From assembly GCF_003334405.1 (NCBI RefSeq), contig NZ_QOWM01000002.1: a stretch of 64,000 bases of DNA; one strand, written 5' to 3'. This stretch comes from Escherichia coli. GTDB lineage: Bacteria; Pseudomonadota; Gammaproteobacteria; Enterobacterales; Enterobacteriaceae. Positions within the stretch are counted from its first letter, which is position 1; each line of letters starts with the position of its first letter. Of this stretch, positions 51,627 to 51,782 are shown in pieces. The notes beneath the pieces are model-generated. The model ran no database searches and was not told the DNA's origin. It worked only from the letters and a program-made list of their open reading frames with translations. A program made the translations under genes and the position numbers.

Positions 51627-51782
51627 GACCTCTCCTTTCCACCGTTCAATTTCGAAACAATGTTTCTAGTTTAGCGATTCGCCAGCGCGTATCCCGTAGT
51701 CTGGCTCACAGAGTGACGAAAAACTGGGCAAAAACACGTGCTTATGCTTTGCTTAAAAAAACACCAACTGAGGAGTGCAACG

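Follow-up and report, generated by a model that had tools for sequence, protein, structure and literature searches.

A conserved palindrome in the gpr (yghZ) promoter of Enterobacterales is a probable operator and has the core of KdgR boxes

The 13-bp palindrome between gpr (yghZ) and the divergent yghX pseudogene of Escherichia coli very probably belongs to the gpr promoter as a functional operator to which a protein binds. It is conserved with dyad symmetry upstream of gpr across the Enterobacterales, and its core is identical to that of boxes at KdgR target genes. We estimate at about 50% the probability of the full reading, in which the palindrome would act as a repressor operator within the gpr promoter and be bound by KdgR. 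The enzyme itself is well characterized and reduces both L-glyceraldehyde 3-phosphate and methylglyoxal; we found no specific regulator assigned to gpr/yghZ in the literature.

The window, meaning the whole 64-kb stretch of E. coli DNA that was analyzed, contains the following features at this locus.
50586..51626, minus strand: gpr (yghZ), encoding L-glyceraldehyde 3-phosphate reductase (346-aa ORF; RefSeq annotation of the identical region), with its ATG start codon at 51626-51624
51632..51636, minus strand: gpr Shine-Dalgarno sequence AGGAG, read from the sequence and conserved in orthologues as AAGGAG/AGGAG
51654..51666, no strand assigned: 13-bp dyad core, which on the gpr strand reads GAAAC-ATT-GTTTC
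51783..52667, plus strand: yghX pseudogene (YghX-family hydrolase), a frameshifted ORF and the divergent neighbor of gpr

Direct reading of the sequence revealed a perfect 6-1-6 inverted repeat, gaaaca-a-tgtttc, in agreement with the sequence-only reading, which had reported a palindrome of this sequence at these coordinates between divergent yghZ and a pseudogene of the DLH family. The core in the window is GAAACATTGTTTC, and the exact sequence GAAACANTGTTTC has a single match in the 64 kb. The palindrome is held within the 156-bp gpr/yghX spacer; on the gpr strand it starts 40 nt 5' of the gpr ATG, and between its other end and the yghX ATG there are 117 nt. The window contains 22 perfect 6-N1-6 palindromes regardless of their sequence, compared to 15.75 ± 3.76 in 100 shuffles, and ~0.04 would be expected by chance per 156-bp spacer. 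Considered without its conservation, the palindrome is therefore only weakly above chance, which bears out the earlier caution that so short a repeat could have arisen by coincidence. The palindrome exceeds chance because it is conserved.

A scan with the Gpr protein, using one genome per species, yielded 21 Enterobacterales loci, including those of Escherichia, Citrobacter, Enterobacter, Pseudocitrobacter, Kluyvera, Phytobacter, Cedecea, Pluralibacter, Siccibacter, Rahnella, and Yersinia, as well as others. Every one of the 21 has the pattern RAAAY-RNY-RTTTY 33-50 nt 5' of the gpr ATG, with no mismatch in 19 loci and one mismatch in the other two, and within each 300-bp upstream region the gpr box was the top matrix match. 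The sequence-only reading had held that its proposal of an operator would fall if the palindrome were missing from related genomes, and the relatives were found to have it. When the loci were anchored on the box, the columns held 1.2, 1.5, 2.0, 2.0, 1.4, and 1.0 bits in the first half, 0.1 bits at the center, and 1.0, 2.0, 2.0, 2.0, 2.0, and 1.4 bits in the second half. The remainder of the spacer held ~0-0.8 bits/column, the intergenic DNA around the box having diverged. The center of the box is always purine-N-pyrimidine with a free middle base, and the half-sites are 3 bp apart in each of the 21 lineages. Within E. coli, 5,424 of 5,426 complete genomes contained the 601-bp segment that surrounds the box, with 94-100% identity, and the segment was annotated with gpr and yghX on its two sides. 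The box was found at none of 59 Gpr homologue loci outside the Enterobacterales, a control that says little because these loci are at 70% GC. Almost all matches from a Gpr homologue search aimed at Dickeya and Pectobacterium belonged to Escherichia clusters.

The gene upstream of gpr is yghX in only ~10 of the 21 loci. Elsewhere this neighbor is yghW, a chemoreceptor gene, or nrdEF-like or crcB-like genes, with the box retained in every case. Since the box occurs in all of the loci and yghX in about half of them, we consider the box to be an element of the gpr promoter. The earlier suggestion of a shared operator for a dimeric regulator thus survives in one of its parts: the dyad-symmetric conservation suits an operator for a dimer, but the box follows gpr, and the sharing with yghX was not upheld. 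In the window, yghX carries two deletions relative to the intact allele of MS 21-1 and Nissle 1917, 2 nt after nt 108 and 1 nt near nt 467, and both of these frameshifting deletions are identical to those of K-12 MG1655. The gpr-yghX spacer is ~85 bp at three loci from Enterobacter spp., placing the box ~30-45 nt from both start codons, and with so short a spacer the gpr and yghX promoters must overlap. The box could also influence yghX in short-spacer genomes such as these.

Three further features make up the predicted gpr promoter.
51668..51673, minus strand: -10-like hexamer TAAACT of the predicted gpr promoter, 1 nt 5' of the box
51659..51663, minus strand: predicted gpr transcription start zone, 5-9 nt 3' of the -10-like hexamer and inside the box
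51692..51713, minus strand: tentative class II CRP site, with a perfect TGTGA at 51710->51706 and CTACG as the second half

In 20 of 20 lineages, the box is preceded at a distance of 0-1 nt by a TAnnnT hexamer, with variants such as TAGAAT, TAAAAT, TAAGAT, and TAGTAT, among others, and the T, A, and T columns of the hexamer hold 1.7 bits. The position of this hexamer would place the box center at approximately +1. Taken together with the analogy to tabA described below, it suggests that gpr transcription begins inside the box. No full promoter was recovered from the E. coli gpr-yghX spacer by a strict sigma-70 scan, a result that counts against the favored reading although it is what an activator-dependent promoter would give. 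By our own reading, the GC preceding TAAACT forms a sigma-S-like -13C context. The C directly 5' of TAnnnT is found in the Escherichia/Citrobacter clade, as in the window (GCTAAACTA at 51666-51675, minus strand) and in GCTAAACT and GCTAGAAT, and a gSELEX peak for the RpoS holoenzyme, with an intensity of 3.2, has been reported in the yghW/yghZ spacer.

The sequence suggests that in the Escherichia-Citrobacter clade gpr has a class II CRP site and that its promoter probably needs cAMP-CRP. Eight lineages (from Escherichia, Citrobacter, Pseudocitrobacter, RIT691, and Kluyvera) have TGTGA at a distance of 41.5-42.5 nt from the box center. The -35 hexamers are poor in these eight genomes (1-3/6), whereas most lineages that lack TGTGA have better ones, for example TTGCCG, TTGATA, or TTTTCA. 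When compared to TGTGA-N6-TCACA, the left half of the candidate site matches at 5/5 positions and the right half at 2/5. The CRP gSELEX paper leaves yghZ unmentioned; the Crp-2 iModulon includes gpr. Membership in this iModulon, the TGTGA ~41.5 nt 5' of the predicted start, the weak -35 hexamer, and the putative repressor site at +1 are all traits of class II CRP promoters with an overlapping repressor. The gpr promoter differs from these in the poor match of its second half-site, in the restriction of TGTGA to one clade, and in that its CRP site is a candidate drawn from the sequence. On the plus strand, 51706-51716 reads TCAC-AGA-GTGA, and the GTGA half-site faces yghX as well.

KdgR, an IclR-family repressor of Dickeya and E. 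coli, recognizes a box with the reported consensus AATRAAAYRNYRTTTYATT, and the genes of the KdgR regulon are typically under CRP control as well. The 13-bp core of the gpr box is the core found at kduI, kdgT, kdgK, tabA, pelW, and kdgM. The following boxes, all located 5' of established KdgR targets of E. coli, were compared, with starts given relative to the ATG.
kduI, start at -59: GAAACAGTGTTTC
kduI, start at -126: GAAACATTGTTTT
tabA (yjgK), start at -31: GAAACGTTGTTTT
kdgT, start at -136: AAAACAGCGTTTC
kdgK, start at -82: GGAACACTGTTTT

We searched the kduI loci of eight further genera, ~95 kb in all, with the core pattern only. All 11 matches fell into kduI/kdgT/pelW/kdgM intergenic regions, which makes the core highly specific for promoters of the KdgR regulon. 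In the gpr boxes, the degenerate positions (R1, Y5, R6, Y8, R9, and Y13) vary as they do in KdgR boxes. A KdgR matrix of 23 bp was then built from 14 core-selected sites in nine genera. With its core columns alone, the gpr boxes scored 12.0-20.9, compared to 12.5-19.5 for the training sites, and the core in the window gave the 20.9. The gpr box thus has what is expected of a KdgR box as regards its core, and likewise as regards its conservation, being present at every one of the 21 Enterobacterales loci.

The flanks and the total score were below what is expected of a KdgR box. The total was obtained over the following segment.
51649..51671, minus strand: 23-bp scoring window, consisting of the core and 5-nt flanks, the flanks being unlike AAAWT/AWTTT

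Over this segment the gpr box scored 16.7 (core 20.9; flanks approximately -4), compared to 21.5-34.4 for the reference sites scored by leave-one-out, and so fell below all 14 of them. The gpr box was the top matrix match in the 64-kb window; random sequence would give 0.043 matches with a score of at least 16 per 64 kb, or ~3 per genome. The orthologue boxes scored 7.7-23.0, with four of the 21 (21.5-23.0) reaching the canonical range. Where real KdgR sites have AAAWT...AWTTT, the gpr boxes have the -10 hexamer followed by A/G on the 5' side and RAAA on the 3' side. The base abutting the box on its 5' side is A/G in nearly every gpr lineage, with T only in Enterobacter R1, as opposed to T in most KdgR sites. 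The 5' mismatch plausibly arises because the -10 hexamer occupies that flank. Boxes at Yersinia pelW and kdgM have 'GTTTCtatt/tttat' flanks, and KdgR half-sites of this kind therefore exist. The 14-site matrix had replaced a 5-site E. coli matrix because the latter overfitted the flanks; with the 5-site matrix, the gpr box scored 12.4, no better than the best match in the shuffled window.

In summary of this comparison, the gpr box resembles a KdgR box in its RAAAY-RNY-RTTTY core, including the degenerate positions, in its dyad symmetry, in its location within or beside the core promoter, and in the probable CRP dependence of that promoter. It differs from a KdgR box in having neither the AT-rich AAAWT/AWTTT flanks nor the T/A abutting the core. 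The gene that it would regulate, gpr, is moreover not a gene of pectin or hexuronate metabolism. The degenerate core RAAAYNNNRTTTY is matched at two further places in the window, 46831-46843 and 63069-63081. One of the two matching sequences, GAAACACGATTTT, is within a 440-aa ORF; the other, AAAATGATATTTC, lies toward the end of the window in AT-rich sequence, where the sole overlap is with a 94-aa TTG-start ORF. Extra matrix matches were found at 27325-27347 and 63064-63086. Matrix scores at these other core and matrix matches were 13.8-14.3, lower than that of the gpr box.

The promoter of tabA (yjgK), a gene of the KdgR regulon, is laid out as gpr is, with a -10-like hexamer, a single nucleotide, and then the box (TAGAAA-T-GAAACGTTGTTTT). 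Most gpr orthologues read TAGAAT-A-GAAAC..GTTTC and so have this tabA-like layout. The distance from the box start to the ATG is 31 nt in tabA and 40 nt in gpr. The tabA promoter differs from that of gpr in its canonical flanks (aaat/aatt), with a score of 27.5, and in having a published start, where that of gpr is predicted. Sastry et al. 2019 reported that a start-site SNP of strain BW25113, A->G at 4,474,834, raises tabA-yjgL expression. We found this position to be the fourth base of the tabA box, an invariant A (NC_000913.3 4474831-4474843; 832-844 of the tabA locus examined here). The published tabA start is thus position 4 of the box, from which it follows that the tabA box spans +1 and that a change within the box raises expression. 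The effect of the BW25113 SNP may stem from a mutated operator and not from the start site as such.

Evidence on control of gpr by KdgR was sought in published work. In a strain with a 39-gene deletion that removes kdgR, over-expression was reported for kdgT, kdgK, kduD, kduI, asr, and hyi, and gpr was not in this over-expressed module. The absence of gpr is a weak negative because tabA is absent too, and also because a CRP-dependent promoter may have been silent under the conditions used. The papers searched included no report linking KdgR with yghZ/gpr, and no report linking yghZ with hexuronates. Knock-out of kdgR has been reported to raise glpT and glpA mRNA (PMC6958661). This effect and the possible KdgR site at gpr together hint at a link between KdgR and glycerol-3-phosphate metabolism; the product of Gpr is sn-glycerol 3-phosphate.

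The reading that we favor can be stated as a mechanism. The palindrome would be a repressor operator within the gpr promoter that starts 1 nt beyond the -10 hexamer and covers the predicted start, such that a bound dimer would block either the binding of RNA polymerase or open-complex formation. The repressor would most likely be KdgR, the IclR-family regulator of 2-keto-3-deoxygluconate (KDG), hexuronate, and pectin catabolism, whose release is brought about by KDG. Within the Escherichia-Citrobacter clade, cAMP-CRP would probably also be needed and would act via the class II site. Expression of gpr would then be on when glucose is absent and sugar acids that generate KDG are present. A physiological rationale may be found in KDPG aldolase, which yields glyceraldehyde 3-phosphate, as Gpr would clear toxic L-GAP as well as methylglyoxal formed from triose phosphates. 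Triose phosphate derived from KDPG aldolase would thus be the tie between Gpr and KDG metabolism.

A KdgR-type operator at gpr, at which a repressor responsive to sugar acids would bind, would be an ordinary gene switch that had gone unrecorded for this gene, with no new mechanism involved. A conserved operator on the gpr start provides a concrete 13-bp handle on gpr regulation. If KdgR binds there, the removal of toxic by-products of triose phosphates would become linked to the KDG/hexuronate regulon, and sites with a perfect core but poor flanks, located in -10 regions, would be seen to escape standard matrix thresholds. Such a result would improve the regulatory annotation of E. coli. We consider it rather unlikely that the box serves a regulator so far unconnected with gpr, in either of two forms that go further. 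In the stronger form of this idea, an unassigned, Enterobacterales-wide repressor with an IclR-type core would govern detoxification of L-glyceraldehyde 3-phosphate and methylglyoxal in response to a signal of its own. In the milder form, the KdgR regulon would extend beyond sugar-acid catabolism and take in triose-phosphate damage control, by means of low-affinity sites with poor flanks that are missed in matrix searches.

Among the alternatives to KdgR, a different dimeric regulator, possibly also of the IclR type, fares best and deserves serious consideration, though we consider it rather unlikely. Such a protein would use the common GAAAC-N3-GTTTC core with other flanks and would answer not to KDG but to some other signal, such as stress from triose phosphates or methylglyoxal. 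It would account for flanks that are systematically unlike those of KdgR sites and are themselves conserved (the 3' RAAA holds 1.0-1.7 bits), and the place of gpr outside the kdgR-deletion module and the lack of a published KdgR-gpr link in our search also speak for it. However, gpr has no consistently linked regulator gene across the 21 loci, the 5' flank is already accounted for by the -10 hexamer, the degeneracy of the core is exactly that of KdgR boxes, and the Yersinia pelW and kdgM sites already provide real KdgR sites with 'GTTTCtatt' flanks. We know of no other Enterobacterales-wide regulator with a GAAAC-N3-GTTTC core.

It is improbable that no regulator is involved, that is, that the block reflects a constraint imposed by RNA polymerase on the core promoter or initially transcribed region, or that it is a coincidence of E. 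coli. Perfect 6-1-6 palindromes are indeed common in the window, and the conserved block abuts the -10 hexamer. However, a 13-bp profile with dyad symmetry and a free center is untypical of discriminators and initially transcribed regions, the sequence is that of a known repressor core, and the change in the tabA box raises expression.

We also considered an RNA element, in which a 5'-terminal stem-loop of the gpr leader, GAAAC-loop-GUUUC, would serve mRNA stability or translation. Its two arms would be at the very 5' end of the predicted transcript, and 96.8% of cells are pairable when G-U pairs are allowed. However, compensatory changes were found in none of the five pairs over 19 lineages, and covariation was not above that of shuffles (500/500). 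The minimum free energy of the leader was -5.4 kcal/mol (z = -0.37), and the fold ignores the palindrome. The conserved purine and pyrimidine beside the center suit a DNA dyad and not a 3-nt loop, and an Rfam search matched no family. A start inside the box would in addition leave the 5' arm not fully transcribed, which argues against the hairpin. We regard this explanation as very improbable. The dyad-symmetric conservation and the free center, together with the lack of compensatory changes and of an Rfam match, point instead to a DNA site for a dimeric protein.

PlaR (YiaJ), another IclR-family repressor of E. coli, has targets in common with KdgR and a reported box, ATnTGAAACnnnGTTCAnTT, that resembles the gpr box in its GAAAC-N3-GTT(T)C core and as the site of an IclR-family dimer, while differing in its flanks. 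The 18 targets of the PlaR gSELEX paper include none of gpr, yghZ, yghX, and yghW, and YiaJ ChIP-exo peaks were found only at yiaJ/yiaK. With two genome-wide data sets negative, we consider PlaR refuted for practical purposes.

The remaining candidates were rejected on their sequence or spacing. In the LacI-family operators of Cra and RbsR, TGAAAC|GTTTCA, the half-sites abut at a central CG, and the operators are of even length with no spacer. Cra (FruR) and RbsR operators are like the gpr box in their GAAAC/GTTTC half-sites and share its link to central carbon metabolism, but the 3-bp spacer and the conserved purine-N-pyrimidine center of the gpr box do not fit this no-spacer rule. The GlpR half-site, TGTTCGAT, was judged to be a misfit as well, and conservation is lacking in the 3' region. 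The IclR operator, TGGAAAT-N-ATTTCCA, was judged to be a misfit by sequence or spacing, and so were the sites of TyrR, MetR, FNR, Mlc/NagC, Fis, and sigma-54.

Several further observations were made on the intergenic region and its surroundings. In E. coli SY3626 (NZ_CP059283.1 715696-717672), an IS1A element interrupts the gpr coding region in its 5' part and has made gpr a pseudogene; the element is outside the spacer, and the intergenic box is intact. An imperfect inverted repeat of 17 nt flanks the box, with arms at 51601-51617 (CGTTCGGGATTCGCTAA) and 51671-51687 (TTAGCGATTCGCCAGCG) that are 76% complementary, one in the first gpr codons and the other just 5' of the -10 hexamer. Upstream of yghX, a palindromic CACGTG is found at 51735-51740 (within 51728-51747). 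Position 51735 is C in the window and T in the MG1655-derived NZ_CP169634.1 (AATACGTG), and the T destroys the CACGTG palindrome. A second difference from NZ_CP169634.1 is at 54134, with G in the window and T in NZ_CP169634.1.
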